A DNA stretch of 64,000 bases, from positions 6,192 to 70,191 of IMG/VR virus record IMGVR_UViG_3300035002_000022, one strand, 5' to 3'. The stretch comes from a virus. A program made the translations under genes and the position numbers. The notes under the pieces were generated by a model that was not told where the DNA came from, searched no databases, and worked only from the letters and a program-made list of their open reading frames with translations. Each line of letters opens with the position of its first letter. Position 1 is the stretch's first letter. Of the stretch, positions 899-63,199 are shown piece after piece.

Positions 899-1105
899 AT
901 GCCAGTGGAAATCAGATTGAAGCAAGTCAGGGAGGCAAAAGAGATCTCACAAAATGAGTTGGCTAGACGTATAAAGATGTCTCCGCAAAACATTCAAAAA
1001 TTAGAGCAAGGCAGAGCTAAAGGCGTTCAGCTAGATACGCTTGATATGCTTTGTGATGCGCTTGATTGTGAAATCCAAGATATTTTGGTGAGGATTAAAA
1101 AATGA
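899..1105 (+). CDS. XRE/Cro-family HTH regulator
   Basis: IRLKQVREAKEISQNELARRIKMSPQNIQKLEQG is a typical XRE HTH. Confidence 0.9.
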   Translation: MPVEIRLKQVREAKEISQNELARRIKMSPQNIQKLEQGRAKGVQLDTLDMLCDALDCEIQDILVRIKK

Positions 1106-1614
1106 TAGCTGCAGATGCATTGGCAAAGTATCCATACAATTCAACGCAATGGGAAGAGCTTGGTTTTAAGTCAAAACTAGACTTGGAGATGGTTTTGAAG
1201 CTTTCGCCTTCTAGCTATGGCTCTGACTACATGGAGGCGATACTTGTAACAGATGAAAAAGTGACAATGTTCAACGATTTTGCCAAGCAGTACCTTTTGC
1301 TATGGCATCAGTCTTGTCTCAAGGTGAAGCAAAAAGAATCAAGCACCAAACCTGGTACAAACGGGTTTGACTCAGTTTATTTTTTGTTTGATGACCTTAG
1401 ACAATCAATAAAAATTGGCACCACCATTTGCGTAAAACAAAGAGTTAAAGATTTGCAAGCGGGCACATCGGCAAATCTTCAGTGCCTAAAAGTAATAAAA
1501 GGTGGCAGGAGGAAAGAGCATCAATTGCATAAAAAATTTGCACATTTGCATATTAGGGGCGAGTGGTTCAAGGCGACTCCAGAACTACTGAGCTTTATTG
1601 AGGAATGCAAATGA
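1102..1614 (+). CDS. GIY-YIG (T5orf172/Mug113-like) nuclease-domain protein
   Basis: C-terminal IKIG..RVKDLQ..EHQLHKKFAHLHIRGEWF motif. Confidence 0.75.
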   Translation: MIAADALAKYPYNSTQWEELGFKSKLDLEMVLKLSPSSYGSDYMEAILVTDEKVTMFNDFAKQYLLLWHQSCLKVKQKESSTKPGTNGFDSVYFLFDDLRQSIKIGTTICVKQRVKDLQAGTSANLQCLKVIKGGRRKEHQLHKKFAHLHIRGEWFKATPELLSFIEECK

Positions 1615-3028: not shown

Positions 3029-4303
3029 ATGTCTAACTTTGTTTTTGTCCTCGACACCCACCACAAACCGCTCAACCCTTGCAAACCAGGAGTAGCGCGT
3101 TCACTCTTAACCAACGGGAAAGCTGCCGTTTTCAGGCGCTATCCGTTCACCATCATCCTGAAAAAGTCTGTAGCTGCTGACCCCTTACCCCTCACTCTGA
3201 AGCTCGACCCCGGTTCTAAAACGACTGGTATCGCTTTGCTGTCGGGTGATGCTGTAATCTGGGCGGGTGAACTTACTCATCGCGGGCAAGTCATCAAAGC
3301 GTCTCTAGATTCCCGTCGATCCATGAGACGTGGACGACGCAGCCGCCATACTCGCTACCGTCAAGCTCGTTTCTTGAACCGTACCCGTCCTGATGGTTGG
3401 TTAGCGCCTAGCCTTCGGCATCGGGTGTTGACGACGCTGACATGGGTAAAACGGATTAACCGTTTTACCCATGTCAAAGCACTCTCACAAGAGCTTGTGC
3501 GGTTTGACTTGCAAAAGCTTGAGAATCCAGAGATCAGCGGGGTTGAGTATCAGCAAGGTGAACTTGCTGGCTATGAAGTGCGTGAATACTTGCTCAATAA
3601 ATGGGATCGAAAGTGTACCTACTGCGGCAAAGAAAATGTGCCGCTCCAAGTGGAACACATCCAGCCCCGTGCCAAAGGTGGCAGTAACAGGATCAGTAAC
3701 CTGTGCTTGGCTTGCGAACCTTGTAATACGAAAAAAGGGACTCTAGACATCAAGGTGTTTCTAGCGAAAAAACCAGAAGCCCTTAAACGAGTCCTGGCAC
3801 AAGCAAAACGCCCATTGAAGGATGCAGCAGCGGTTAACTCTACCCGCTGGGCATTGTTCAACGCACTCAAGGCGACAGGGCTACCCGTGTCAGTGGGATC
3901 GGGAGGACTCACTAAGTTCAACCGCACACGTCTCAACCTGCCTAAGACTCACTGGCTGGATGCTGCTTGTGTGGGTGAAACGCTCACACTGACAGTGTTG
4001 ACTACGCAACCGCTGCTTATCAAAGCGACCGGGCAAGGTTCGCGGCAGATGTGCAGAACCGATAAATACGGATTCCCCAGTCGTTATGTCCCCCGGTTAA
4101 AGTTTGTGCAAGGCTTCCAGACTGGCGATATTGTGCAAGCGATTGTCACTACCGGGAAGAAGATTGGCACCTATGCAGGACGTGTGGCTGTGCGTTCTAG
4201 CGGTTCGTTCAACATCTCGGACAAATCTGGCTTGGTGCAAGGCATCAGTTACAAAGCCTGCAAAGTGACGCAACGCAAAGACGGCTATGGCTACGCACTC
4301 TGA
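3029..4303 (+). CDS. iscB: RNA-guided endonuclease IscB
   Basis: PLMP-like start (VFVLD..KPLNPC), RuvC-I DPGSKTTG, Arg-rich bridge helix RRSMRRGRR, RuvC-II ELVRFD, HNH CTYC..EHIQP..NLCLACEPCN, RuvC-III HWLDAAC. Confidence 0.95.
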   Translation: MSNFVFVLDTHHKPLNPCKPGVARSLLTNGKAAVFRRYPFTIILKKSVAADPLPLTLKLDPGSKTTGIALLSGDAVIWAGELTHRGQVIKASLDSRRSMRRGRRSRHTRYRQARFLNRTRPDGWLAPSLRHRVLTTLTWVKRINRFTHVKALSQELVRFDLQKLENPEISGVEYQQGELAGYEVREYLLNKWDRKCTYCGKENVPLQVEHIQPRAKGGSNRISNLCLACEPCNTKKGTLDIKVFLAKKPEALKRVLAQAKRPLKDAAAVNSTRWALFNALKATGLPVSVGSGGLTKFNRTRLNLPKTHWLDAACVGETLTLTVLTTQPLLIKATGQGSRQMCRTDKYGFPSRYVPRLKFVQGFQTGDIVQAIVTTGKKIGTYAGRVAVRSSGSFNISDKSGLVQGISYKACKVTQRKDGYGYAL

Positions 4304-4377
4304 CCGACTTTAATCAGTGTTTTTGTTCTTATTCCGCTTAAAAGACGAGGGTTTCCCAAAGGATTTTTTCACAACAA

Positions 4378-4416
4378 AACAGGGGCGATCGTGTTTAGTG
4401 CGATCGCCCCTGTTTT
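4378..4416. terminator. bidirectional intrinsic terminator between iscB and the RHH gene
   Basis: Perfect 14-bp stem AACAGGGGCGATCG/CGATCGCCCCTGTT with A/T tails. Confidence 0.7.
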
Positions 4417-4431
4417 CTATTGCGACAACCT

Positions 4432-4716
4432 CTAATTGTTTGATTTCAGGCTTTTCAGATAAGCGATTGCTTCATTCTGCTTATCAGATGGCAAAGAATC
4501 TAGCAGCGACTTGATTTCAGACCGGGCTATGGATTCATCCCACCAATTAATTTTGTTGTCTTCCTCAATCAAGATAGGCATTCCACGCTCAACCGCTTGA
4601 GCTAAAACTTCAGCGATCGCTACGTTGGTTTTAGCTGCCAACTTCCGAGCGGCATTGTTTAAGCTGTCGCTAATCCGAATCTTGACTTCGTTTTTTGCCA
4701 CTATCCTGTCTGCCAT
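4432..4716 (-). CDS. ribbon-helix-helix regulator divergent from parM
   Basis: EVKIRISDSLNNAARKLAAKTNVAIAEVLAQAVERG fits the RHH pattern. Confidence 0.7.
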   Translation of the reverse strand: MADRIVAKNEVKIRISDSLNNAARKLAAKTNVAIAEVLAQAVERGMPILIEEDNKINWWDESIARSEIKSLLDSLPSDKQNEAIAYLKSLKSNN

Positions 4717-4820
4717 CTTTAGGTTCCTATTATCTCATTTGAGATGATTTTAACCTGCATCCCCAAAAAGAACCCCTCAAACGGGGTTGACTGAGGGGCA
4801 GATTGTGCTATCTTCAATTT

Positions 4821-4860
4821 GTAACCACAGGTAGCCACTCGTCACCACCTGTCACCACCC
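4821..4860 (+). repeat. parC-like iteron array, 4 x 10 bp
   Basis: GTAACCACAG GTAGCCACTC GTCACCACCT GTCACCACCC in exact 10-bp phase upstream of parM. Confidence 0.75.
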
Positions 4861-4878
4861 GTTGAAATTAGGAGGATT

Positions 4879-5862
4879 ATGGGCGCGACTACGGCAATCA
4901 AGCCAAAGACTGAAAATTTGATCAGGGAGACGGTCGCTTTTGATGGCGGCAATCGCACGATTCAGTGGATTGACGCGCTAGGCATGGTGCATACAATCCC
5001 TTCGTTCATCAAATTCATTGATCCTACTTGGCAGGAGATTCAGCCATCGCACAACAGCGTGGTGATTGAGCACGAAGGACAGACCTTTGTACTTGGGCAG
5101 GCAGCGAAGGAAGAGGACGGCAAGCCTATTTTTGAGGCTGGCAAAATCAGCCTTGCACCGAAGCTTGTACTGGCAGCGTTACAACCGAATCCAGGGGAGG
5201 ACGTTGTACGGATTGAGCGACTATTGCTGGCACTACCAAGCTCTCGTGTCACTGAAGATTTGGAAGTCCTCAAGTCGATCGAGGGTACGCACGAATTTAC
5301 CCGCGATGGGCAGCGTATCGTTGCAACTGTCGGTCGTGTGGTTCCAGTTGATGAAACAAAAGCGGCTCATGCTCGTGCTGTTAAAGATCGGCTCTTCAAG
5401 TCTGATACCAAGCTCAACGGAGTTCTAGATCTAGGTGGGGGCACGGCTATCGCTCGTCTTTATAAAACAGATGGCTCCATCAAGCGCGATATGGATGTTA
5501 TTTTGCAGGGTACTGACGCTCTGGCAGAAGCAATTTCAGCACGAATCAACCACAAGTTAGGGCACACAGCGCAGGCGTGGGCTGTGATGGATGGTATTGA
5601 ACGTGGCGACTACGCAATTGGTGAAAATGGTCAGAGCTTCAAAGATGCATTTGATGACGCACATGCCGAATGGTTGACCAACATCCGGCAGAAGATTGGC
5701 AGTAAGTGGAAGCCGCTAAATCAATCGGGTCAGATTGGTGAAGTGCTCATCATCGGTGGTTCTGCCCCTTTAGCAAAACCACTGGAAGAGTTAACTAAAG
5801 GTCGATTTTTTGTTGCTGATATGCCTCAAGTGATCTCTATTCGTTCCATGCCTCTGCTATGA
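4879..5862 (+). CDS. parM: ParM/StbA-like actin-fold partition ATPase
   Basis: Phosphate-1 DGGNRTIQ, phosphate-2 DLGGGT and adenosine IIGGSA motifs; 327 aa. Confidence 0.85.
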   Translation: MGATTAIKPKTENLIRETVAFDGGNRTIQWIDALGMVHTIPSFIKFIDPTWQEIQPSHNSVVIEHEGQTFVLGQAAKEEDGKPIFEAGKISLAPKLVLAALQPNPGEDVVRIERLLLALPSSRVTEDLEVLKSIEGTHEFTRDGQRIVATVGRVVPVDETKAAHARAVKDRLFKSDTKLNGVLDLGGGTAIARLYKTDGSIKRDMDVILQGTDALAEAISARINHKLGHTAQAWAVMDGIERGDYAIGENGQSFKDAFDDAHAEWLTNIRQKIGSKWKPLNQSGQIGEVLIIGGSAPLAKPLEELTKGRFFVADMPQVISIRSMPLL

Positions 5863-6101
5863 CTTCCCCGCTGCGTGTTCAGTTCTCAGGCGATAAAGCT
5901 GAGTACGCTCGGCATTTGGCTAAAGTCGCTGGTCTTGATGATGATGTTCACCGCTTGTTTTGCCAAATGATGCACTTGTATGGATCTGACTGGGAGAGTC
6001 GATGGGCAGCGGATAGCAACCAGTTCCGACCACCAGCAGCAAGCTTTTCGCCACCGACTGTTGAAGTCGATCTTTCAGTTGATTCGATACCTGGCTTGTA
6101 A
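5859..6101 (+). CDS. ParR-like adaptor
   Basis: 80 aa; ATGA-coupled to parM; RHH-like N-terminus and disordered acidic tail. Confidence 0.55.
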   Translation: MTSPLRVQFSGDKAEYARHLAKVAGLDDDVHRLFCQMMHLYGSDWESRWAADSNQFRPPAASFSPPTVEVDLSVDSIPGL

Positions 6102-6104
6102 CAG

Positions 6105-6144
6105 GTGGCTATACGTCACCACAAGTCACCACTGATAGCCACCT
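6105..6144 (+). repeat. second parC-like iteron array, 4 x 10 bp
   Basis: GTGGCTATAC (inverted) GTCACCACAA GTCACCACTG ATAGCCACCT; same consensus and phase as 4821-4860. Confidence 0.7.
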
Positions 6145-6170
6145 GTTGTTTCGCGTCCTCACCATTAGCC

Positions 6171-6545
6171 ATGTCCAACCACTTAACTAAAGCTTTCCAC
6201 CGTCTGAGCCTGAAAACACTAAGCAGCGCGATCGTTAGTGGTGTTGCTGCTTTCCTTGCCACTGGCGCTGCCACCAATCACTACCTGGAGAACTATCCAG
6301 AAACCACAATTCAGGGGCGTGAGCGCTTTCTGGGTGTGGTGATGACGCACATTGCGCCTTTTGCGGGCTTGACTGCTGTAGCGGCAGTAATCGCCACAGC
6401 CTTAGCCATACCAGAGCGAGATGATGATGCAGTGGTAGCCAAATTCATTGCTCGACAGTTTAATCGAGGCACACTTACGGCTACTGAGCTAGAAGTACTC
6501 AGCAACCTGGTTTCGCTCCGAGAGGATCAAAAAACCAATCCGTAG
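6171..6545 (+). CDS. two-TM membrane protein
   Basis: Probable start ATG 6171 (MSNHL); two hydrophobic helices. Confidence 0.65.
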   Translation: MSNHLTKAFHRLSLKTLSSAIVSGVAAFLATGAATNHYLENYPETTIQGRERFLGVVMTHIAPFAGLTAVAAVIATALAIPERDDDAVVAKFIARQFNRGTLTATELEVLSNLVSLREDQKTNP

Positions 6546-6634
6546 AAAGCCCAGTTTCCCACCAACAACAAGCCTCAAAGACCGATTCTTGCGTTCATTT
6601 AGTGGGACAAATTCAAATCTAGTGGGACATTTTC

Positions 6635-7336
6635 ATGCTTTCAGACACACCAGATTTCGGCTCTCAAAATGGGCACACACCAACTCCACCAACGCCTCAG
6701 CCAAGCGCGATCGCCAAACCCACTTTTTTCAGCAAGCTACTGTTCTTTGGTGCTGTTGGTGGGGCGTTGATCTTACCTCTAGTCACACGTCCCCACCAAT
6801 CACCATCTGTTGCACCAACCCGCGACACGCCAGTAGTGAGGCAGCAACTGAAGGATGGACAGCCTGTAGCACCTGCAACTGATTCTCCTTCAATGGATGA
6901 GTTGATCAGTACGTTAGATAAGGCGGTAGTGACAGGCGATCGTGACTTTGGTTTACTGCTCAAGATTCGGGCTGACCAATTCCAGCGTCAGGCGCAAAAG
7001 AGTAGCAATGCTGAGTATTGGCTGGTGCAGACCTACGTTGCGCAGTACAACCAGTACATCAAAGCCTCCAAGCGCTACGGTTCTCTCTCTGGCGATGCCG
7101 AACAGTTTCAAGTGATCAAAGACTACTTCATCGATTCGCTTGCTTGTCTCTACGCCCTGAGAGCCGTCAAAAAAGGCGAGGCTGTGAGTGGCAAGGCGAT
7201 CGCGCCTAAAGAGTACCTGGACGCTGCCAACGAAGCGATCGCGCAATACTCTCTGATTCTCGGTACAAACTTTCTCAATCCTTCGGTGCCTCAAGATGAA
7301 CCCAAAAGCGATCGCAAGCCTGTTGCTGTTAAGTAG
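6635..7336 (+). CDS. single-TM membrane-anchored protein
   Basis: TM LLFFGAVGGALILPLV between Pro-rich linkers, then a helical domain. Confidence 0.65.
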   Translation: MLSDTPDFGSQNGHTPTPPTPQPSAIAKPTFFSKLLFFGAVGGALILPLVTRPHQSPSVAPTRDTPVVRQQLKDGQPVAPATDSPSMDELISTLDKAVVTGDRDFGLLLKIRADQFQRQAQKSSNAEYWLVQTYVAQYNQYIKASKRYGSLSGDAEQFQVIKDYFIDSLACLYALRAVKKGEAVSGKAIAPKEYLDAANEAIAQYSLILGTNFLNPSVPQDEPKSDRKPVAVK

Positions 7337-8588
7337 CGCTACTCTCACCATGTCTTTGCTGCGTAGTCCGGTAGGGATGTATGCAGGGTTGGCAATGGTG
7401 GGCGGTGCGTATGGCATCAACCGCAAGCACCAGCTCACAAACGGCGATTATGCTGCTGTTTTGCGTGAACCTGTCAATGGCTTTACCGAAGGCTGGCAGC
7501 ACTTATTCGAGACGTTTGCCTTCAGTCGCAAGGACATTGGTGAAGCTCGCAAGTTAATCCAAGTGCAGAACCTGCAAAAAGAACTCAAGACAAATGTGCA
7601 AGCTTGGGTAGAAGCAGAGTCCATCAAAGGCGAGTGGCTAGGCGATTGCATCCGACGATCGTTGTTGGTCTGCGGTGTGAGTGGCGATGGCAAGACTACC
7701 TTTCTGCTGTGGGTCTTAGCCAAGCACTTTGAGATTGTTGCTGATCTGCATGTCACTATCTGCGACTTGGATTATGGTTCGTCGCATGAGGGCAGTGAGC
7801 CGAATTGGTGGTTTAACCTGCCGCGAGGACGCTATATCCGTGCCAGCTACGAAGAAATCCGTGATTCGATTCTGGCTGAATCGGCAGAAGTCGATCGACG
7901 TGCCAAACTGAGCCAGGATCCAATGCAAGTGCGTAACTTCCAATCCAGGCTCTTAGTGATTGACGAGCTGATTGCAGTGATTGACATTGCGCGGTCAAAA
8001 GGTAAAGACGAGTTTGATCCGTTTATCTCTGCCTTTAAAAATATTCTTAACCGTGGACTCAAACAGCGGGTGAAGGTAATCTGCGGTGTGCAGAATTTGA
8101 CCGTGACCGACACCGGGTTATCACTGGCGGCACAAGACTCGTTTAATACGATCGTCCTTCACACATCAGCCTTGAAAAAAGACCCATTGAAGCGCATGGG
8201 TGTTGAAGATGTAGATGCAATGCTTGAACGCGCTAAGGGCATCACAAGGATCCCAGGCTGCGATCGCATTGGTGTTGTGCGGACTAATCAAGAGATCAAT
8301 ATTCGCATCATGCCGTATCTCAGCGTGGACAGCGTTGAGCTTAAGTTGCCAGAAGACGACACAGACCCGCTTGAAGTTTGGCATCAGCAAGTGTTTACAA
8401 CCGCAAAGTTGGCTGAAATTGAACAGCTGGCTGAGCAGTTTTTAGCAAAAGAGATCAAGAGTCCGTTAAGGCAGATTGCGATCGACTGTGGCTTGAAAGA
8501 ACTCCGCAACGCTGACCCGAAATACCAACGGGTGAAGCAGGTCTGGGAAAGTGCATTACAAAAAGTGGGGGTATTGGTTCATGGTTAG
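7296..8588 (+). CDS. membrane-anchored P-loop ATPase, FtsK/HerA/coupling-protein-like
   Basis: N-terminal hydrophobic hairpin, Walker A GVSGDGKT, Walker B LLVIDE, RGLKQRVKVICGVQ motif. Confidence 0.7.
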   Translation: MNPKAIASLLLLSSATLTMSLLRSPVGMYAGLAMVGGAYGINRKHQLTNGDYAAVLREPVNGFTEGWQHLFETFAFSRKDIGEARKLIQVQNLQKELKTNVQAWVEAESIKGEWLGDCIRRSLLVCGVSGDGKTTFLLWVLAKHFEIVADLHVTICDLDYGSSHEGSEPNWWFNLPRGRYIRASYEEIRDSILAESAEVDRRAKLSQDPMQVRNFQSRLLVIDELIAVIDIARSKGKDEFDPFISAFKNILNRGLKQRVKVICGVQNLTVTDTGLSLAAQDSFNTIVLHTSALKKDPLKRMGVEDVDAMLERAKGITRIPGCDRIGVVRTNQEINIRIMPYLSVDSVELKLPEDDTDPLEVWHQQVFTTAKLAEIEQLAEQFLAKEIKSPLRQIAIDCGLKELRNADPKYQRVKQVWESALQKVGVLVHG

Positions 8589-8778
8589 ATTGGTTGGCAC
8601 TTTGGTTATTGCTTCGCTGCTACTGAACCTTCTAGGCTCAGGCACCATCAAACTTTCAGTGGACGTAAGCGGCACGATCAAAGTGCTCTATAACGTCGCT
8701 ACGTTCATTCTGACTGGGCAAACCCGCACGCCCACACCAGAGCAGCGCAACCCAGTACCACCAAACGGGGTTGAGTGA
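8581..8778 (+). CDS. small membrane protein (holin/pilin-like size)
   Basis: MVRLVGTLVIASLLLNLLG; overlaps the ATPase stop. Confidence 0.55.
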   Translation: MVRLVGTLVIASLLLNLLGSGTIKLSVDVSGTIKVLYNVATFILTGQTRTPTPEQRNPVPPNGVE

Positions 8779-8954
8779 TGGTACGCACAGCGATCGCCAC
8801 TTACTACTTCGTCATGCTCTGGATTGCCATGCAGATTCTTACGCCTGGGTTGATTGCGCCTGCCAACCAGGAAATTCAACGGGCGACAGGGTGGGATCTG
8901 CCAAGCATGGGTAAAGACTCAAGTCAGATGCAGCCACCGACACCGAAGGAGTGA
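8778..8954 (+). CDS. small single-TM protein (58 aa, read by hand)
   Basis: TGATG coupling; MVRTAIATYYFVMLWIAMQILTPGLI...PKE. Confidence 0.55.
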   Translation: MVRTAIATYYFVMLWIAMQILTPGLIAPANQEIQRATGWDLPSMGKDSSQMQPPTPKE

Positions 8955-8957
8955 GCA

Positions 8958-10682
8958 ATGGCTGAGAACGCTGACTTAGTAAGAGCCCTTACAAAAATAA
9001 ATCAACGGCTGGATGGCATTGAGTCAGGACTAAAACGATCGCAGTCATCAACGAAGCGCGATCGCAAGAGCAAAGATCATGATGCTGAAAAGTTGGTCAA
9101 GTTTGTCAATCGCAAACTTAAAGCAGCTTCAGACGACATCCAGGAAGCGCTCTATCTCAATACGCTAGGCTTTCATCTGATTGCGCCGTGGGTTTGTATT
9201 GGAGTGCTGCTAGTGGGACAGCAAGCAAAAACGCTAGACCCGAAGGATTGGGTGCGCGTGGTCTTGACGATGATTAACCCTGTGGCTGGTCTAGTGCCGA
9301 TGGACAGCAAGACACCTGAACCGAGCGGCGATACTGTGATTGATCTTGCCAAAGTTACAGCAGGCGAGAAGATTGGCAGTTACGAAGTCACTAGTGGCTA
9401 CGGACCGCGTAACTCCCCCGGTGGTATCGGATCGACTTCCCATAAAGGTGTAGATGTGGCTTTGCCATCTGGCACACCCATTAAAATGCCTCTAGATGGC
9501 AACGTGAAATGCCATGACCAAAGTGAAGGCAATGCAGCAGGCACTTATGCAGTGATTGTGCCGACTGAAGGCACTTATGAGTTTATGGCAGCGCATCTGT
9601 CACAGTGCAACTCAGGCACCTATAAAGCAGGAGCTACGATCGCCCTTTCTGGTAACACAGGCAATTCAACTGGACCGCATTTGCATTGGGCGCAAAAGCC
9701 CAAAGGTGGTAGCTACATGCCGCCGATGCGGGGTTACTTAGAATTAGCTGTGGTGGGGCAAGCGTCGATCGTTGTGGCAAATCCAGTGATCAAGGCGATC
9801 GCCACCCAGGAATCAGGCGGCGACTATACTCAGGTCAACCGTGATTCTGGAGCGCTAGGCAAGTATCAGATCATGCCTGACAATGTGCCGTCCTGGTCGA
9901 AGGAGTGCTTAGGGCAATCGATTAGTGCTCAACAGTTTTTAGGTAGTTCCAGTCTCCAAGAAAAAATTGCGACTTGCAAACTAACACAAGAGTTTGAGCG
10001 ATCGCGTAAGGCTGGTGAGAGCAGTTTTGAAGCCTGTCGATCGACCGCTGCATTCTGGTACTCAGGCAATGCCAGTAATAAGAACAGCAGCAAGCCTCAA
10101 GGCGGTTATCCGTCTATTCAGGATTACACGATTCAGGTTTGCTCTAAGGTTGGCAAGCAGACTGAGGTTGCTGCTAGTCGTGGAGCACAGACGACCTTTG
10201 CAATATATGCAGGTTACGAAATCGGTAGCGCTGTGAGTCTTGGCAGAGGGAAGCTGCTCACGAATTACCACGTGGTCAAAGGCAGCAATACAGTTAACGT
10301 CAAATTATCAAACGGCTTTATTACTCGCGCCAAGTTAATCAAGCAATCCCCATCAGAAGATTTAGCGTTGTTGTCAGTCTCTACTGCGTTGCCTGGTGTG
10401 CCGCTGGCGGCAAATGTGCGTCAGGGTGAGCGAATTACAGCGATCGGTAATCAGCTTGGCAAGATGACACGCACAACGGGTAGTGTGAGCGCTATCAGTG
10501 CCATGGTGCAGCATTCAGCCCATCTCGATCGCGGCAACAGCGGTGGGGCATTGCTGAACGATCGAGGGCAGTTAGTCGGCATCAATGCTCAATGTGATGC
10601 TGATGAGCGTGGCAATTGCAAAGCTGGCGGCAATGGTTTTGCAATTCCAGTCAATAAAGTCAGGAGGTTCATCGATGGCTGA
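8958..10682 (+). CDS. multidomain cell-wall hydrolase: TM + M23 peptidase + lysozyme-like domain + trypsin-like (S1) protease
   Basis: HKGVD and HLH (M23); QESGG..GALGKYQ (lysozyme-like); TNYHVV, EDLALL, GNSGG (His-Asp-Ser triad). Confidence 0.85.
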   Translation: MAENADLVRALTKINQRLDGIESGLKRSQSSTKRDRKSKDHDAEKLVKFVNRKLKAASDDIQEALYLNTLGFHLIAPWVCIGVLLVGQQAKTLDPKDWVRVVLTMINPVAGLVPMDSKTPEPSGDTVIDLAKVTAGEKIGSYEVTSGYGPRNSPGGIGSTSHKGVDVALPSGTPIKMPLDGNVKCHDQSEGNAAGTYAVIVPTEGTYEFMAAHLSQCNSGTYKAGATIALSGNTGNSTGPHLHWAQKPKGGSYMPPMRGYLELAVVGQASIVVANPVIKAIATQESGGDYTQVNRDSGALGKYQIMPDNVPSWSKECLGQSISAQQFLGSSSLQEKIATCKLTQEFERSRKAGESSFEACRSTAAFWYSGNASNKNSSKPQGGYPSIQDYTIQVCSKVGKQTEVAASRGAQTTFAIYAGYEIGSAVSLGRGKLLTNYHVVKGSNTVNVKLSNGFITRAKLIKQSPSEDLALLSVSTALPGVPLAANVRQGERITAIGNQLGKMTRTTGSVSAISAMVQHSAHLDRGNSGGALLNDRGQLVGINAQCDADERGNCKAGGNGFAIPVNKVRRFIDG

Positions 10683-11103
10683 TTTAGGTTACTACGCACG
10701 GCTAGAAAGGATGAGGCGGCATCATAAGCGCTGGCTTTGGCTGGTTTGTGGGCGCTGCTGCATCACATTGCAAGCGATCGGGCAACAGCGCGGCGGCTAT
10801 ACAGGGTACGCCTGCCATCACCTGAACTATGGTAGCGATCGCTTATGGTGGTCTGTTTTACCAGTTTCTAAAAGCTTTCACGACAGCGTTTTGCACGGCG
10901 TTTTATCTGGTGGTCTTTCGGCAGGCGAACAACGACGCAAGCATGGGCGCTACCCAAATCTTTTGCAAACGCTGTTGCATTGGTGGGGGAGGTTTGTGCT
11001 GTTGTGCCTGCTGCTATGTCGTTTTGTGTTGACGGTATGGCGCTACAAGTTTGAGTTAGCAACTATGACAGCGATCGGTCTTGTTCTGCACCGTTTTCTT
11101 TGA
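10675..11103 (+). CDS. HNH-like domain protein with C-terminal hydrophobic helices
   Basis: GGAGG RBS before ATG 10675; CHHLNY...VSKSFHDSVLH; two hydrophobic C-terminal segments. Confidence 0.5.
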   Translation: MADLGYYARLERMRRHHKRWLWLVCGRCCITLQAIGQQRGGYTGYACHHLNYGSDRLWWSVLPVSKSFHDSVLHGVLSGGLSAGEQRRKHGRYPNLLQTLLHWWGRFVLLCLLLCRFVLTVWRYKFELATMTAIGLVLHRFL

Positions 11104-11121
11104 TTCAACTGGAGCAATAAA

Positions 11122-11427
11122 ATGTCGAAGATTCTTATAGTGATTTTTGGACTTACTTTTCTAGGCGCTTTGCCTGCTTCTGCTGCAACTAAAGTTTGTG
11201 TTAATGGAGGCAGCACAGGTTTATCTGTACGTGGTGCCGACCAAAAAGCTATTGCCAAGGTGCCAATCGGTTCTCGGTGGTGTGGCGTGACAAATTATAA
11301 GGTTAAGTACAGGATTGATTTTGGGCGTGATGGCTTGGTTGATTATGTTGATGTCGCTTTTCTTAATGGCACAAAAGGTTATGTAGCAAAAACTTTTTTA
11401 TTCCCTTTTAAGATTCAACGTCGTTGA
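11122..11427 (+). CDS. secreted SH3b-like protein
   Basis: Signal peptide ending ASA-A; GLSVRG...KGYVAKTFL pattern. Confidence 0.55.
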   Translation: MSKILIVIFGLTFLGALPASAATKVCVNGGSTGLSVRGADQKAIAKVPIGSRWCGVTNYKVKYRIDFGRDGLVDYVDVAFLNGTKGYVAKTFLFPFKIQRR

Positions 11428-11879
11428 CACTCCCACGGCTAAAGCACGATCGGTTTTGCGGGTTCTCAGCCTCTCCCTTTTCTATAAAATTGTTATGTGT
11501 TCCAGGTTGCCCCATGCAAAGTAGATCTAAGCCCGTTGTCGTCGGTGGCAGAGTTAAAGCAGAAGAAGTGAATGCGCCTGCTGAATGGCTAGAAGCGATC
11601 GCTGCTGCCATGTTTCATATCGGTGCTCAATGTCGGCGGGCGCATAAAGCGCTGGTCGATCGCTCTAGTGCTGATTCCGACTTCATGACGGATGAAGAGA
11701 TTAAGGATAAGCTCGACATGATGCATCAGAAGTATTTGGAAGCGCAGGGCGCATTGCGAAATCAGCTTTCGGAGCATCGCGCACTTCGGGCAATCCATTT
11801 CAATCGTAAAGCTGTGAAACGTCGCCTGCAAGAATTGAAAGAGGCAGAAGATAAGCACCTATACAGGAGGGAGGGCTGA
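11424..11879 (+). CDS. helical hypothetical protein (start uncertain)
   Basis: ORF; TGATG-coupled to the next gene. Confidence 0.45.
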   Translation: MTLPRLKHDRFCGFSASPFSIKLLCVPGCPMQSRSKPVVVGGRVKAEEVNAPAEWLEAIAAAMFHIGAQCRRAHKALVDRSSADSDFMTDEEIKDKLDMMHQKYLEAQGALRNQLSEHRALRAIHFNRKAVKRRLQELKEAEDKHLYRREG

Positions 11880-12277
11880 TGGACGCTAAGACACTAGCAG
11901 CATTGTTAGACGGTCGGCAGATGGGCGATGAGATTACTAAAGAGGAAGAAGCGATCGCCAAAGAGCATAGCTTGGTTGTAGCGTTTGGCTACTCCGACGA
12001 CAATGTTGAATTTAGAGGCGCGATCGATGATGAGGTAGGGGCTTACGATGGCGCTGAAGTAGCAATAGTAAACGGGGCGATCGTCACTTCTAAGGATGAG
12101 TTAGCTTTCTTGGCGAAGTATCCTACTGCATCCCTGACAGGCGTTCGCAAAGTTACAGCAACATGGGAACCAGAAGGGCTAGATGCTTCATGGCTGATTG
12201 ACACTGAAGGTGGCGAACCATTTGATATTTACGAGGACGAGAAATTGTTCTGTCGCGGCATGGTGTTCAAGCTATGA
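11879..12277 (+). CDS. phage hypothetical protein
   Basis: 132 aa; GGAGG RBS; VVAFGYSDDNVEFRGAIDDE motif; coupled on both sides. Confidence 0.65.
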   Translation: MDAKTLAALLDGRQMGDEITKEEEAIAKEHSLVVAFGYSDDNVEFRGAIDDEVGAYDGAEVAIVNGAIVTSKDELAFLAKYPTASLTGVRKVTATWEPEGLDASWLIDTEGGEPFDIYEDEKLFCRGMVFKL

Positions 12278-12480
12278 ACGACGATCGCAACCTAGACGCA
12301 ATTAAGGATAGGGCTACGACAGATGCGATCGCGCAGGCTCTGAGCACTATCGACAGCACTCTGGAGTATTGCGCTGTCTTTGTGGAAAGCAATATCGAGT
12401 ATTTTGTGGACCCGAAGGACAAGCGGTTGGCAGGTACGATCGCGCAAGCTTTGAGGAACAGGAAGGTGAGCAATGGATAG
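12274..12480 (+). CDS. hypothetical protein
   Basis: 68 aa; overlapping start/stop on both sides. Confidence 0.55.
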   Translation: MNDDRNLDAIKDRATTDAIAQALSTIDSTLEYCAVFVESNIEYFVDPKDKRLAGTIAQALRNRKVSNG

Positions 12481-12838
12481 TGATCGTTTTGTGATTGAGT
12501 CGATCGACCTTGCGCGTAATCTTTTTGGGCTATCAACTGAAGATGCAGTCGCAGCGCTAATCAGGCTTAAAATGATTCGTGGTTTGACATGGCAAGGGAT
12601 ACGCGATCGTCTTCGGGCTGATTTTATTTATTTGGATGCTGACGGGCAACTAGAAACCACACCCCACTTCACATCGATCGATTGGGATGATGTCATCCAA
12701 ACGCTCACACCACCACGCCGATCGACCTGTGTTGGCTGCCGTTTTTACCACGGGGAAGTGCATCGGGGCACGCAGTTGATCTGCGCGGTGCATCCGAAAG
12801 GCTGGCAAGGTGATGTTTGCCCTGATTGGGACAGCTAA
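12473..12838 (+). CDS. Cys-rich C-terminal (DUF6464-like) protein
   Basis: CVGCRFYHG..LICAVHPKG..CPDW. Confidence 0.6.
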   Translation: MDSDRFVIESIDLARNLFGLSTEDAVAALIRLKMIRGLTWQGIRDRLRADFIYLDADGQLETTPHFTSIDWDDVIQTLTPPRRSTCVGCRFYHGEVHRGTQLICAVHPKGWQGDVCPDWDS

Positions 12839-12847
12839 GGCTCCAAA

Positions 12848-13213
12848 ATGAATAAAACATTGAGACGATGGTTGATTTCTGGTTGCATGGTTGGCGCTTG
12901 CTCGATCGCGCTATTCTGGCAAGCCCCGCAAGTAGTTAACTCAAATTACTGGTACTTAGGTTTTGCGATGGATGGCGTAGCGATCGTGATGCCCGCTGCA
13001 TTAGGCATGAACATTTTCAGGCGTATGCGCCGAGCAACAAAAATGGCTGTGTTGATCTACAGCCAGACGAAGGTATGGGTTTCAAGCTGGGACTGCTTAA
13101 CCTTGCCGCAGATGACCGGGGATGAGTTGTTAGAGCGATTGGCAATATTCAAAGCCGATCGTGAGTTGTTTGAATCACCGTTGAATGTTCTTAGAGGCAA
13201 AAAAGTTAGCTAA
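12848..13213 (+). pseudogene. 5' part of a two-TM protein gene, probably interrupted by the RHH-tnpB element
   Basis: Joining GTTAG 13205-13209 to GTTAG 14630-14634 restores an open frame to TGA 14743. Confidence 0.55.
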
Positions 13214-13403
13214 GAGCGTGCTCTTCCCTCCTATTCGCCAACAATTGCTTGCTTTCGGGAGTGAGTGAATCTTCCAGTCCTCTCACCCACTCCCGAATCA
13301 ATTCCGTTTTTGACCGCGCCACCTGATCTGAGTAGACTTCCAAAATGTCCATCTCACCAACCAAAATATCTGCGTTCAACCTGACACCTTTTCGCTTTGT
13401 CAT
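13206..13403 (-). CDS. ribbon-helix-helix (CopG-like) protein
   Basis: VRLNADILVGEMDILEVYSDQVARSKTELIREWVRGL. Confidence 0.7.
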   Translation of the reverse strand: MTKRKGVRLNADILVGEMDILEVYSDQVARSKTELIREWVRGLEDSLTPESKQLLANRREEHALS

Positions 13404-13407
13404 TTGC

Positions 13408-13433
13408 TATAATGTGAGTAGTAGTTACTCACA
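13408..13433 (+). promoter_or_regulatory. tnpB -10 box plus palindromic operator
   Basis: TATAAT 13408-13413, then perfect inverted repeat TGTGAGTA-N5-TACTCACA (13413-13433). Confidence 0.65.
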
Positions 13434-13440
13434 GCTTATC

Positions 13441-14544
13441 ATGCTCCTAGGTTTCAAGACGGAACTCAGGTTAAACAACGAGCAGCGCATAGTGTTGGCG
13501 AAACATGCTGGCACTGCTCGTCACGCTTACAACCAGGGTCTTGCTTTAACCAAACAGGTGCTTGATTGGAATACTACACACCCAGAAGATAAGATCAAGT
13601 TCCCGACAGCAATTGACTTACACAAGTGGTACGTTGCATCTATCAAATCTGCCAATCCTTGGATATACGAAGTGTCTAAATGCGCTGGTCAATACGCGCT
13701 GAAAGCGTTGCGTGATGGGTGGGATCGGTGCTTTAAGAAAATCTCTAAGCCGCCAAAATTCAAGAAAAAAGGACAGCGTGATGCATTTAGATTAGATGGT
13801 ACGATCAAAATTTTAGGCGTTAATCATCTTCAACTGCCCGTAATTGGAGTGTTGCGGACGTTTGAAAACTTGCCGCAATCGTTCAAGCCAAAGAGTGTCA
13901 CGATTAGTCGTCAGTCCGATAAGTGGTTTGTTAGTTTCAATCTAGAAGTTGAGCCAACCCAGACAGAAAAAACCAATCTATCTGTAGGTGTTGACCTTGG
14001 CGTGAAGCATTTTGCTACCTTGTCTAACGGTCAAGTGTTCGACGTGCCTGCGTTGTACAAGCGGCTCAAAGTGAAGATTGCGAAGTTGCAATATGTCAAC
14101 CGTCATAAAGTCATTGGCTCTCAAGGTTATAAAGACTTTCAAGCTAAAGTCGCTCGACTTCACTACCGTTTGTTTTGCGCTCGCAAGGACTTCTTAAATA
14201 AGCTGACAACCTATCTAGCCAAAACTTTTCAGGTCGTCTGCATTGAAAATCTGAACGTATCGGGGATGCTGAAGTTTGGCAGGCTGGCGGGTGCTGTAGC
14301 CATGCTGGGCTTTTACGAGTTCCGTAGGCAACTGGCTTATAAGTGCAAGCTTTACGGTTCTCGACTGTCTGTAATCGGACGCTGGGAGCCTTCTAGTAAA
14401 CTACATCACAAGTGTGGTTGGAAGCATGAAACGCTCAAACTCTCAGACAGAATTTTCTACTGTCCTGAGTGTGATGAATCAATTGACCGTGATCTAAATG
14501 CGTCTCTGAATATAGAGCGCATCGGGCTGAGTCTCAGTTCGTGA
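13441..14544 (+). CDS. tnpB: RNA-guided endonuclease TnpB (IS607-like)
   Basis: Start MLLGFKTEL; RuvC-I GVDLG, RuvC-II IENL, Zn finger HxxC..CxxC, RuvC-III DRDLNA. Confidence 0.92.
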   Translation: MLLGFKTELRLNNEQRIVLAKHAGTARHAYNQGLALTKQVLDWNTTHPEDKIKFPTAIDLHKWYVASIKSANPWIYEVSKCAGQYALKALRDGWDRCFKKISKPPKFKKKGQRDAFRLDGTIKILGVNHLQLPVIGVLRTFENLPQSFKPKSVTISRQSDKWFVSFNLEVEPTQTEKTNLSVGVDLGVKHFATLSNGQVFDVPALYKRLKVKIAKLQYVNRHKVIGSQGYKDFQAKVARLHYRLFCARKDFLNKLTTYLAKTFQVVCIENLNVSGMLKFGRLAGAVAMLGFYEFRRQLAYKCKLYGSRLSVIGRWEPSSKLHHKCGWKHETLKLSDRIFYCPECDESIDRDLNASLNIERIGLSLSS

Positions 14545-23041: not shown

Positions 23042-23575
23042 TTATTTACCCAAATCCGCAAAATCCGGCTCAGCGCAAGACGGACCAACATTAGCGACGA
23101 AAGTTACTGCTGCTGGGTTACCGCTAGCAGGTTTTACTGACTGACAGAGCACGGCTAGAGTGGTAGCTTCCCCTTCTGTCGTGCCAGTCGTGAAGCCGAT
23201 GCCGACACCACCTGTATACGCCCTTAGTGTAGTGGTGAAAAGGGGGTAGGCAACATTAGCGACAGCGGATTCAGAGGCATCTTGGATCGCGTAAGTGTAG
23301 TTAGTCGTCTCGGTTTTGATGCCTAAGCCCAATAACGAAACATCACTAGAGAAAGCGTTGTTTTCCAGAAAGTGAGCCTGTTGAGCACGGTTCATAGAAC
23401 CTGCATAAGTCTTAGCTTCAGACTCTTTCGCTTTGTTTGCCTGGTTCAGGAAAGATGGCAGGGCGATCGCGGAGAGAATGCCGATGATGATGATAACAAC
23501 TAGCAGTTCAATCAAAGTGAAGCCGTCGTCTGACTTTTTGATAGCGTTGATGAGCTTGAATTGAATTGGTTGCAC
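23042..23575 (-). CDS. pilA: type IVa major pilin (cyanobacterial PilA1-like)
   Basis: GTG 23575 after GGAG; leader ..IKKSDDG|FTLIELLVVIIIIGILSAIALPSFLNQANKAKESEAK; E5; two C-terminal Cys. Confidence 0.9.
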   Translation of the reverse strand: MQPIQFKLINAIKKSDDGFTLIELLVVIIIIGILSAIALPSFLNQANKAKESEAKTYAGSMNRAQQAHFLENNAFSSDVSLLGLGIKTETTNYTYAIQDASESAVANVAYPLFTTTLRAYTGGVGIGFTTGTTEGEATTLAVLCQSVKPASGNPAAVTFVANVGPSCAEPDFADLGK

Positions 23576-23606
23576 AAGGAACTCCAGATTGGATTGAGTA
23601 GAACAT

Positions 23607-26600
23607 TTACAAGGCACGACCTGCACCACTGTTGTAGTAGTACGAGAGGTCAACGTTGCCACCCTCAGAAGTTGGCAGGTCTTTGAAGAAACCCGTGTAG
23701 CGCATCCTGCCCCATAAGTTAGCGCCGTCTTCAGAGCGATACCCCAGCGTTAGATTCTGTGCCGTGTCGCCGTGCTGTATGGTGGTAGTTGCCTTATTGA
23801 ATGCGCCTGCATTCACGCTAATGCCAATTTCGTTTGGGGAACCAGGCTTGTAGTAAATGGTGAGAAAATAGAACGTGCTAGAGGTAGCTCCACTAAAATT
23901 ACTAGCCAAAACTGTTTGCGAAGTAGGCGCACCCGTTGCAATGTTATACAAAACATAAACAAACCGTGACCCGTCGAAGTACAAGACGTATTCAAAAATA
24001 GCATTTGAATAATTCGTACCCGGCACAAAACCCTTTTGAAGAATGAAGTAAGCAGTAGTTGAATTTAAATAAGCCCATGTACACCAAGTAAAAGCAGCAT
24101 TGCCTACGGATATGTCGGCAGTATCAGCCCCGGTCAAAGTAGAGTTAGAACCCCCGCTTAGAGTGACATAATCGCCACTTGTAAAAGTTGCGCCTGCACC
24201 AGCATCAAGGTTAGGTGTACCCACAACCGCATTGCCATTACTTGTGAGGTTCCAATAAGCAGAAGGAGAACCAGCAGAAGGAACACTAGCAGCTAGGGTT
24301 GCGGGGGTAGCATTTAACCTGAGCACAGGTGCCACACCCGATCGCGCTACAGATGCATTCCGGCTACCACTCAACGCACTCAACCTGAGTACAGGTGCCA
24401 CACCGGAACGAACCACGGGCAAAGCGTCAAAAGGATATTGAGGATTAGAGACTAGGCTAGTGATTTCGGCGCTACTCAGAACGCGGTTCCACATCGTTAC
24501 GCAGTCAATCCATGTGCCAGCGAAGAAACCTGAGTTGGGCTGATTCAGTAAGAAACGATTACTGCCACCTGTCCGTACAATCAGCGGCTTACCTGTTGCT
24601 GTAACGGTTGTGAAATTAACACTATCAGTTAAGTTTCGGACAGCTAACCCTGCGGTGCCTGTAGGATTATTCCAAATTACTACGAGGTAGGTTTTGTTGA
24701 TGCTGTACGATTCGCTTGTCTCTAGCCCCACATCTTGAGCCGAATCAAATAGCGCTACGTCTCCGTTGCCAGTCGTAGACGCATACTGGAAGGTGATTTT
24801 AGTGCCATTAAAGACAACCTGCATTTGAGTGGCACCAGAGCTTGTGTTGTAGTAGCACAACGGAATATAAGTGTAGCTAGAGCTTTGCGGTCTGAAAACA
24901 AAGGCTTGCGTAAACGATTTGTCGTCAATCCGCAGCGCTGTGCCAGTAGCAATGCTGATTTGCAGGAAAGAACCATAGACACCAGAACCAGCAGTGTCGC
25001 TACTGGTAAAGGCTTGACCGTTATAGCCAGTGACATAGGTAGGTGTTGCTGTTTGTAGGCTGCCAGCATTTTGATCAAAGTAGCGACAGATCCAATTATT
25101 CGTACTAATTGCATCATTGAGGCTGTTGTCAAGCTTCCAGGCACCGATCGCGCCTGTAGCCAGAGAGCTGCCGCCAATCACTCCGACACCTGAACCACTC
25201 AAGGCAGAAAGCCTGAGTACAGGAGCTACGCCCGATCGCGTAATTGTTGTAGCAGCTTTGCCACTAGGGGCAAACAAGCGAATGATCGGTGCCACACCAG
25301 AACGACTGATCAACGAACCGAACGAGCCAGAGATACTACTGAGTTGCAGGACTGGCGCTACACCTGATCGCATCACTGTAGGCACATAGGGCAGCACTGG
25401 CACAGTAGCGTTAGCGGGGATGGTTGCCAGCCAGATTAACTCACACCCCACAGTGGCGCGAGTGCGATCGTGCGAGAAGCTCAGCCCGTCAACTTGATAA
25501 ACAATCGTGTCATACACCTTTGACCAAACACCACTGCTAAACACAAAGCGCGGTTCTCTGACGTGGATGACCGGGTAAGGGTTTTCATTGGTCAACCATT
25601 CGTCAGTCAGCCCTAGCAGGATTTGCGCTCCTTGTCTGCGTCCGACGAGATCCTCACCTATTTCTTGAGCGATCGCGCTTGCTTGCTCATTGCTGATCAT
25701 CCAGGGGATTGAGATAAAGCGGCGACGGTCTTGCTGATTGGAACCTGCAAAGCTGCCAAATAACGCCACGCCGTCTAGCTGTCGTTCATTGCGTCCGTAG
25801 CGCTGTGGTCGCCGTTCAGCAGCAGGAGGGTTGTTTTGCCCACTGCCGCTCACCGTAGAAATTGGATTGGTTGTAGTGAGTCTGATTTTCTCGCTGACCG
25901 TTGCCGTATCAGGCACAGCATCAGGAAAGACATCAATCAGCGGTGCGGCTGGCGCTTGTGTGTACTCCCATTGCCCCGGTCTGATTTCGCGGTACGTCTG
26001 GATTTCACTCGCAGCAGGGACTTGGAAAATCACGCCTGCTGTCAATGGATTCACGTCAGGCAGAACGCTTGCCAGCATGCGGCTAGTGCGGCTTTCAATC
26101 TCGTCTACTACTTCTTTGGGCGTGTAGTGGTAGTAGGTGATCGTGCGAGTATCGATCGACGGACTAAAAGCCGCGTAATTTGCCTTCTGAGCAGTGCTTA
26201 AGCCACTCCAAAATTCGCTGGCTGCTACTCGAAACGGACGCACGATCGTTGTCTCGTCTTGCAGCAACTTCCCATTGCCGCAGACATTAACCTCGTAAGT
26301 CTTGATATTAGTCGTGCGGCGACTGAAGATGAGCGAATCATCACCTGGCGAATCGTCAGGTGCTAATAAGCCACGAGGCTCAAGTTCCTCGACTTCATGC
26401 AGGATTTGCGTTGCGTCCTGTGCGTCTCTAGTGCAGGTAATCCGAGTGACAAGATTAGAGCCAGGGGCATAAGTGATTTTGCAAACGGTTGTGTCTTGCC
26501 AGGTATCCGTGATGTCGTAGGTTGAGCCTTGCACGCGAATTTCTTCGCATGGCGTTTCTTGCCCAGCGACAGGCATATACTCAGCCTCGTCTTCTCCGAT

Positions 26601-63043: not shown

Positions 63044-63199
63044 ATGCCTGAACTAACTTGGCTTGAAAGCCGCGAGACTCTACTCAAATACGCTATGGTG
63101 CAAGCGCTTAACACAATGCCCTGGTGGATGCCTGCAAGCTGGGCGATCGCGCTGGCTGAGCGTAGGGCTAAGGCAGTGTGCGATCGGCTTGCCCAATGA
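63044..63199 (+). CDS. small hypothetical protein (51 aa, read by hand)
   Basis: Stop overlaps the acyltransferase ATG (ATGA). Confidence 0.45.
   Translation: MPELTWLESRETLLKYAMVQALNTMPWWMPASWAIALAERRAKAVCDRLAQ

Follow-up and report, generated by a model that had tools for sequence, protein, structure and literature searches.

Gene organisation of the module

The stretch of DNA analysed here, referred to as the window, comprises 64,000 nucleotides (positions 6,192 to 70,191) of the IMG/VR virus record IMGVR_UViG_3300035002_000022 and lies on contig C34 of a host genome that is 96% complete. According to the list of open reading frames (ORFs), the plus strand from 4879 to 11103 has the appearance of a single tightly packed operon. 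Its first gene encodes a ParM-like partition ATPase and is followed by a module of translationally coupled genes, at window positions 6171-11103, for a membrane-anchored FtsK-like ATPase (P0001), small membrane proteins and a membrane-anchored envelope hydrolase (Table 1). Comparison with other loci identified it as a conserved module of mobile elements, both plasmids and phages, of filamentous cyanobacteria. Eight genes were counted in the window and six to eight elsewhere.

Table 1. Features of the operon and its surroundings (window coordinates; TM, transmembrane; aa, amino acids).
Feature	Position	Strand	Description and basis
ParM-like actin-fold partition ATPase	4879..5862	+	phrog_691 'partition protein', 8.4e-14; directly upstream of the module
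80-aa gene (putative adaptor)	5859..6101	+	overlaps the parM stop codon; ParR-like by position only
Two GTCACCAC units, 10 bp apart	6115..6132	+	between the adaptor gene and g1; repeat search
g1	6171..6545	+	small protein, 124 aa from the ATG at 6171; 2 TM helices (hydropathy)
g2	6635..7336	+	bitopic; short cytoplasmic N terminus, 1 TM, Pro-rich linker, helical periplasmic domain (hydropathy and alignment)
ATPase P0001, 430 aa	7296..8588	+	membrane-anchored, FtsK-like (motifs, family profile, AlphaFold model)
g4	8581 (alternative GTG start 8551)..8778	+	small 1-TM protein (hydropathy)
g5	8775..8954	+	small 1-TM protein (hydropathy)
Envelope hydrolase, 574 aa	8958..10682	+	TM-anchored, three domains (Pfam, PHROG and NCBIfam matches)
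g7	10675..11103	+	Cys/His-rich, C-terminal TM
101-aa protein	11122..11427	+	N-terminal signal-like helix (hydropathy)

TM segments were predicted by using a hydropathy script. Overlaps were found at the junctions of g2 with the ATPase gene (41 nt), of the ATPase gene with g4 (8 nt), of g4 with g5 (4 nt) and of the hydrolase gene with g7 (8 nt); g5 and the hydrolase gene are 3 nt apart. A preliminary description of the window had listed an operon, at 6171-10682, of a 2-TM protein, a 1-TM protein, a TM-anchored ATPase, two small TM proteins and a TM-anchored wall hydrolase. Every ORF named there was present on the plus strand. The extent had to be enlarged to 11103 by one further conserved gene, g7, and the hydrolase, while TM-anchored as described, was found to possess three catalytic domains instead of one.

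The protein encoded by g1 is as long as its orthologue from Lyngbya. Homologues were found at the matching position in loci L001, L003, L004 and L008, and this position is held by 2-TM proteins in L005, L006 (PaV-LD ORF129) and L026. The g2 product appears all-helical; a word-based homologue search returned just two close relatives, and an iterated hidden Markov model (HMM) recovered L001, L008, L003, L027, L026 and PaV-LD ORF128 (8e-5). Homologues of g4 occur in L001 and L004, and small 1-TM genes are situated 3' of the ATPase gene at every locus inspected. Homologues of g7 lie immediately 3' of the hydrolase gene in L001 and close to it in L004; the protein matched no family in a Pfam search, and g7 is probably the last conserved gene of the module. 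For the 101-aa protein encoded downstream, neither a homologue at the other loci nor a family match was obtained, and its membership of the module is uncertain.

A scan of 4300-13400 for promoters and terminators gave counts not above those of shuffled sequences. Two 19-nt direct repeats, ATTTAGTGGGACAAATTCA and ATCTAGTGGGACATTTTCA, were noted at 6597-6635; they are 20 bp apart, end exactly at the start codon of g2 and may constitute an internal regulatory site in the operon's sole sizeable gap.

Occurrence at other loci

The gene order was found to be conserved in 14 other loci, with ATPase identity down to 23%, so the arrangement is not a chance one. In the common order, a 2-TM protein comes first and is followed by a bitopic protein whose periplasmic domain is helical, the ATPase, between one and three small 1-TM proteins and, mostly, an anchored wall hydrolase; homology of g1, g2, g4, g5 and g7 across several loci was established by using phmmer and iterated HMMs. 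Carriers are a Lyngbya metagenome-assembled genome (MAG; ATPase 71% identical), whose locus is listed in IMG/VR as a 72-kb viral contig, a Pantanalinema MAG, three further cyanobacterial genomes, the metagenome contigs L003, L004, L035, L038, L039 and L040, two closed plasmids of Oscillatoria acuminata PCC 6304 and the Planktothrix phage PaV-LD. The locus search from one family alignment (A1) yielded two genome loci and two viral loci.

The carriers include elements of phage type and of plasmid type. PaV-LD is an isolated phage; L035 encodes NblA and a portal protein, and L040 encodes SSB, thymidylate synthase and a large serine recombinase. L003 and L039 are plasmid-like, with ParA and a DUF3854 primase. 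The Oscillatoria plasmids pOSCIL6304.01 (NC_019700) and pOSCIL6304.02 (NC_019694), 64 and 51 kb in size, hold the complete module, preceded by ParM, and genes for capsid, portal, terminase or tail are not among their annotations. All eight module genes are intact on both plasmids, with protein identities of 53-93% between the copies. In seven of these genes, synonymous codon differences exceed non-synonymous ones, the exception being the gene of the GH108 hydrolase. Between the window and its Lyngbya orthologue, a synonymous excess was found in g1, g2, the ATPase gene, g4 and g5, and was absent in the hydrolase gene and g7.

The Oscillatoria loci resemble the window in gene order, including ParM and its small partner, and their ATPases are 28-29% identical to that of the window. 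They differ in having a GH108 hydrolase instead of the M23/SLT/protease enzyme, and their module genes are annotated as hypothetical; pOSCIL6304.02 differs further in carrying a MOBP relaxase elsewhere on the plasmid.

In PaV-LD (NC_016564), ORF122-ORF129 form a homologous module with the same order (ATPase 23% identity, 9e-13; g2 homologue 8e-5), with small 1-TM proteins, a TM-anchored M23 peptidase and a filamentous cyanobacterial host. Unlike in the window, the wall enzymes of PaV-LD are distributed over two genes (peptidase and endolysin), an extra small gene is present and no parM lies upstream. A further difference is that the PaV-LD module has been studied only for its two distal genes, as lysis genes, by heterologous expression. 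The preliminary description had stated that no such module had been described in a tailed cyanophage. This is correct only in part. A search of the paper library for PaV-LD together with FtsK gave one unrelated paper, and no paper dealing with the ATPase jointly with its partners was found there; ORF127 is, however, annotated as FtsK/SpoIIIE, and ORF123 and ORF124 have been published (PMC9096620).

When 401 sampled cyanobacterial genomes were searched with the profile, four proved to encode a full-length ATPase. Each of these contains hetR, a marker of filamentous cyanobacteria, versus 101 of the 401 genomes (25%) overall. By simple counting, the probability that all four would fall among hetR carriers is about 0.004, or about 0.015 without the window's own genome. 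As these genomes are related and the small genomes of unicellular strains hold few mobile elements, the association with hetR is suggestive only. All carriers named to genus or family are filamentous or have a filamentous host (Lyngbya, Pantanalinema, Oscillatoria, Thermoleptolyngbya, Elainellaceae and, for the phage, Planktothrix). An equal frequency in unicellular hosts, which the preliminary description had named as evidence against a spreading function, was not seen in this sample; full-length copies were confined to hetR-positive genomes.

The FtsK-like ATPase

Searches with the single ATPase sequence against Pfam, NCBIfam, PHROGs and the Protein Data Bank (PDB) gave nothing above threshold. 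Sub-threshold hints of TniB (Pfam), a clamp loader (PHROGs) and TnsC (PDB) were overruled by the profile and fold results. The protein contains a Walker A motif (GVSGDGKT, residues 127-134) and a Walker B motif (LLVIDE, residues 219-224, with D223-E224), and G132, K133 and E224 are invariant across 82 family sequences. Following Walker B, R253-G254-L-K256 and Q266 (the RG.K...Q motif) are conserved in the family alignments and, judged by position alone, would form the arginine-finger/sensor region. The family is small: a word-based search gave 11 clusters, and 97 representatives at 50% clustering were found among 1.8 billion proteins.

A profile of 82 members matched EccC/EssC (2.1e-10), HerA (6.9e-9), TcpA (2e-4) and FtsK (7e-4) in the PDB; the alignment spans Walker A, the D-x-K-G-G strand (D-L-D-Y-G here), the next helix, ending in R-R (E..RR), and Walker B. 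An AlphaFold model built on the family alignment (predicted local distance difference test, pLDDT, 89.6) consists of an N-terminal helical hairpin (residues 3-45), a flexible or disordered linker (~77-98), a RecA-like core (~110-345) and a four-helix C-terminal domain (358-429). Comparison of this model with the PDB by using Foldseek placed TcpA of pCW3 (6o1w) at the top (5.7e-7), followed by EccC, the FtsK motor on DNA (2e-5, probability 1.00), STIV2 B204 and HerA. Among the Swiss-Prot models, FtsK proteins and ConQ/YdcQ of ICEBs1 were matched, the latter with a root-mean-square deviation of 4.0 over 242 residues, and the model of Tra from Streptomyces pIJ101 aligned over the whole length of the ATPase (residues 2 to 423).

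The gathering score of Pfam FtsK_SpoIIIE (PF01580) was not reached by P0001, a six-frame search of the genome was blank at the locus, and 7 of the 82 family members matched this Pfam family, weakly (best 8.7e-5). Although highly divergent and, by threshold, outside Pfam FtsK_SpoIIIE, the ATPase is to be grouped with the translocases and coupling proteins of FtsK type. The FtsK/HerA-like assignment of the preliminary description was borne out in that profile and fold place the protein with TcpA, EccC/EssC, FtsK, ConQ and pIJ101 Tra, and no grouping with a non-translocase family occurred. A role as virion packaging ATPase, brought up by the match to STIV2 B204, was rejected, as the element has its own large terminase, encoded in the window, and plasmids carry the module.

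The C-terminal domain was folded alone (pLDDT 78). Its profile gave no PDB match below E 0.5 and the rows of the atlas search were generic; its model had no Foldseek match below E 1, and the VIA search returned generic helical bundles only (Z up to 6.4). With these searches blank, DNA is a putative substrate only, as judged from the motor family to which the ATPase belongs.

The best PDB profile matches being type VII ATPases, protein export was considered: an EssC-like ATPase could secrete or insert the hydrolase or the small proteins, for superinfection exclusion or for attack on neighbours. The C-terminal domain shows no DNA-binding fold, and EssC and EccC likewise carry a pair of TM helices at the N terminus and have small bitopic proteins as partners. 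Type VII ATPases differ, however, in possessing three tandem ATPase domains and in exporting proteins, whereas the ATPase of the module has one RecA-like domain plus a small helical domain, and no FHA domain. The structural matches to TcpA, FtsK and ConQ are equal or better, and the hydrolase carries its own signal-anchor. No WXG100-like gene was recognised, a dedicated search not having been made, and PADLOC assigned no defence family to any module protein, the generic protease domain excepted. A function in export or envelope conflict is accordingly thought to be quite improbable.

The envelope hydrolase and phage lysis

The hydrolase starts with a cytoplasmic head of 68 aa and a TM segment (residues 69-87), followed by an M23 domain (~140-255), an SLT-like transglycosylase domain (~274-345) and an HtrA/trypsin-like protease domain (~405-574). 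In Pfam, the protein matched Peptidase_M23 (1.7e-14) and Trypsin_2 (1.4e-22); the region in between gave a weak SLT/transglycosylase match, and the catalytic motifs HKGVD, HLH, QES, NYH, DLAL and GNSGG are intact. Most of the loci inspected have a hydrolase here, although no such enzyme was recognised in L040. Its type varies by locus (M23 alone, M23 with a trypsin-like protease, GH108, or M23 with a separate endolysin), and a membrane anchor was found wherever inspected (window, L005, PaV-LD ORF123 and others).

An M23 and SLT-like enzyme behind two 1-TM genes resembles a lysis cassette in arrangement, and the module might accordingly be an elaborate lysis system. The small TM proteins would then act as holin or antiholin, g2 would resemble an inner-membrane spanin, the hydrolase would be the endolysin, the ATPase would time or energise release, and the plasmid copies would be relics of phage-plasmids. 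ORF124 and ORF123 of PaV-LD have been published as a holin and an M23 endopeptidase on the evidence of growth inhibition and leakage upon expression in E. coli and Synechocystis, with no phage mutant (PMC9096620). The M23 part of the window hydrolase has a homologue in ORF123 (2.8e-13), and ORF122 of PaV-LD is annotated as an endolysin. Genes for NblA, a portal protein, thymidylate synthase or SSB are found on many of the carriers, which are phage-like contigs. No second wall hydrolase was recognised in the window ORFs scanned, so the enzyme may be the element's endolysin.

Several points argue against this explanation. The module is not confined to lytic phage functions: it is intact on the plasmid-like contig L003 and on the two coexisting Oscillatoria plasmids, which lack annotated virion genes and keep all eight genes, seven with a synonymous excess. 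Its presence on plasmids without annotated phage structural genes implies more than a lysis cassette, and the outcome envisaged in the preliminary description, that the module would prove to be only the lysis cassette, was judged unlikely. The long cytoplasmic head and the strongly hydrophobic TM segment distinguish the hydrolase from signal-arrest-release (SAR) endolysins, and a head of 68 aa is unlike a released endolysin. The evidence from PaV-LD consists of over-expression toxicity, and the operon starts at parM, a maintenance gene. Moreover, we know of no lysis cassette that contains an FtsK-like ATPase. Lysis as the whole function of the module therefore appears rather doubtful; in phage carriers, its hydrolase end probably also serves lysis.

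Partition locus

The ParM-like gene matched Pfam ALP_N and NCBIfam ParM weakly, below cut-off; phmmer with its product found an Oscillatoria plasmid gene annotated as ParM/StbA (1e-17). Homologues of the ParM-like protein are encoded ahead of the module in L003 (1e-99) and pOSCIL6304.01 (annotated as ParM/StbA). The 80-aa gene had no family match, and a small gene likewise follows that of ParM in L003, L005, L032 and L026. The gap of 69 bp between the putative adaptor gene and g1 contains the GTCACCAC pair listed in Table 1. A second GTCACCAC pair with the same 10 bp spacing was noted at 4841-4858, before parM. These pairs could be a split centromere or a translocase site.

ParM and its small partner stand ahead of the module in five loci (window, L003, L026 and the Oscillatoria plasmids L005 and L032). 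The position of the module behind parM, as given in the preliminary description, thus recurs at these loci, whereas most carriers (L001, L004, L008, L027, L028, PaV-LD, L035 and L038) have no parM.

One possibility raised by this linkage is a segregation aid acting with ParMR, in which the membrane FtsK-like pump would clear or pull copies of the element through the closing septum and the hydrolase would remodel the septal wall, with no horizontal transfer. Exactly such work is done for chromosomes by FtsK and SpoIIIE. Between the window and L003, ParM (1e-99) is far better conserved than g1 and g2, and no match to Pfam FtsK_SpoIIIE above cut-off was found anywhere in the host genome, in which the ATPase of the element may be the only FtsK-type pump. 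The carriers without parM count against this idea, since PaV-LD and other phage-like elements among them would gain little from a segregation aid, and the known FtsK segregation systems contain no wall hydrolase. Segregation without transfer is hence given little credence.

Comparison with transfer systems

The preliminary description had pointed to the TraB/Spd systems of Streptomyces plasmids. These systems (pSVH1, pIJ101) mediate conjugation and intramycelial spread by means of a membrane-anchored FtsK-like ATPase and small membrane proteins (PMC4447253). The module shares with them a single membrane-anchored FtsK-like ATPase as the sole motor, several small membrane proteins, an association with peptidoglycan, the lack of relaxase and VirB4, and a multicellular filamentous host. 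Differences are that no homology to Spd sequences was detected, that the ATPase has no recognisable C-terminal winged helix-turn-helix and that the module has a dedicated multi-domain hydrolase, a diderm host and phage carriers; the GTCACCAC pairs next to the module are only candidates for a counterpart of the clt site.

TcpA of pCW3 and ConQ/YdcQ of ICEBs1 are the best structural matches of the ATPase and share its N-terminal TM anchor. Their systems are linked genetically to the membrane-anchored multi-domain wall hydrolases TcpG and CwlT. These coupling proteins with their hydrolases and Streptomyces TraB/Spd are the nearest analogues of the module in mechanism; its nearest homologous units are PaV-LD ORF122-ORF129 and the operons of the Oscillatoria plasmids. 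Unlike the module, the TcpA and ConQ systems need a VirB4-type ATPase, a VirB6-like channel and a relaxase, none of which is in the window. The earlier statement that the window holds no relaxase or VirB set was confirmed, as VirB4, VirD4 and relaxase were all absent from it. The module is consequently set apart both from type IV systems (no VirB4, and no relaxase in cis among the families searched) and from EssC (a single ATPase domain).

In a survey, the sole type of conjugation described for cyanobacteria was the VirB4-based MPF-C, then experimentally unexplored (PMC3548315). The host genome has no match to PF03135 (VirB4 family). The relaxase search covered PF03432 (Relaxase) and PF03389 (MobA_MobL); the latter had no match in the genome, and PF03432 and PF02534 (VirD4) were above cut-off on contig C2 only, with one sub-threshold match of PF02534 on C11. 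The VirD4-type coupling protein and the relaxase of C2 are located at G000:C2:6657-7787 and C2:37594-37959. This contig is 156 kb long and has a GC content of 0.47 versus ~0.51 elsewhere. These features point to an additional plasmid, mobilisable or conjugative, within the strain.

Proposed function

The reading that best accommodates the module is that it moves the element's DNA through the envelope, for DNA transfer or septal spread. On the analysis presented here, this is put forward tentatively. The ATPase would act as a ring-shaped pump at the membrane, anchored by its N-terminal helical hairpin; the small membrane proteins would form or gate a channel, and the anchored hydrolase would open the peptidoglycan locally. 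DNA of the element would thereby be moved across the cytoplasmic membrane and the peptidoglycan, in a manner resembling Streptomyces TraB/Spd and the Firmicute FtsK-like coupling proteins with their hydrolases. The septum between neighbouring cells of the filament would be a route that needs no further parts. The outer membrane does not enter the septum, and filament cells are separated by two cytoplasmic membranes and the septal wall; the lack of an evident outer-membrane part therefore fits passage through septa.

A number of observations weigh against DNA movement. The ATPases at the top of the profile search, EccC and EssC, serve protein secretion. In the atlas, profile, Foldseek and VIA searches, neither FtsK gamma nor any winged helix was matched by the conserved C-terminal domain, which is more acidic than basic (13 D/E vs 10 K/R). 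The module lacks homologues of Spd, VirB4, VirB6, VirB8 and relaxases. Host range was judged from a small count of genomes that are interrelated. One carrier, PaV-LD, is a phage that was isolated on Planktothrix and has no obvious need of conjugation-like transfer; its distal genes, homologous to those of the module, lyse or poison E. coli and Synechocystis (PMC9096620). The endolysin role considered above for the window hydrolase is to be added to these points.

A more specific form of the DNA-transfer reading is a septal conduit, in which ParM filaments would push genome copies to the cell poles and the ring, its partners and the hydrolase would pump double-stranded DNA into the neighbouring cell. 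This detailed version is regarded as unlikely. If it were true, plasmids, prophages and the genomes of infecting phages could spread along the filament without virions and without the outer-membrane parts of diderm conjugation.

Should the module move DNA, FtsK-driven transfer without a relaxase would for the first time be seen outside the actinomycetes, and for the first time on tailed phages. It would explain the travel of cyanobacterial plasmids that are typed as non-mobilisable, and spread without virions would become part of the ecology of filamentous, bloom-forming cyanobacteria and of their phages. A larger machine may have the published 'holin-endopeptidase' pair of PaV-LD as its terminal part, a possibility relevant to anti-bloom proposals that use these proteins. 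Whatever its function, this membrane machine has a clear motor, is widespread and has not been studied at all, and copies of it are carried by two closed plasmids of a culture-collection strain.

Other features of the element and the host genome

The left end of the element lies less than 6 kb from the contig end. Alpha-amylase-family genes and other chromosome-like genes were found at C34:72658-77321 (L030 2465-7128), ~2.5 kb past the right end of the window, and no tyrosine integrase was found on contig C34. The element may be either a free phage-plasmid or an integrated prophage. Among sequencing runs, the stretch was present in the probable source DNA run only, and no RNA run was listed for it.

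Upstream of the partition locus, a 424-aa ORF (3029-4303, plus strand) matched RRXRR (9.8e-73) and then HNH (1.5e-12), an IscB-like architecture. Downstream of the operon, a TnpB/Cas12f-like gene with OrfB_IS605, TNB and helix-turn-helix domains was located in the region 13206-14544; a small divergent gene (13206-13403) lies by it, and no transposase was seen alongside. The window also encodes a protein with a T5orf172/MUG113 (GIY-YIG-related) domain (1102-1614, plus strand) and a hexapeptide-repeat transferase (63178-63726, plus strand). The 3007-aa ORF of the tail region (31357-40380, minus strand) had no Pfam match at E 0.001. Type IV pilin-like and sigma-70-family genes were observed near the module in L001 (14350-14790 and 19827-20342) and L040 (12-935 and 1421-1903), and a pilin is encoded in the window at 23042-23662, as on related phage-like contigs with the module.

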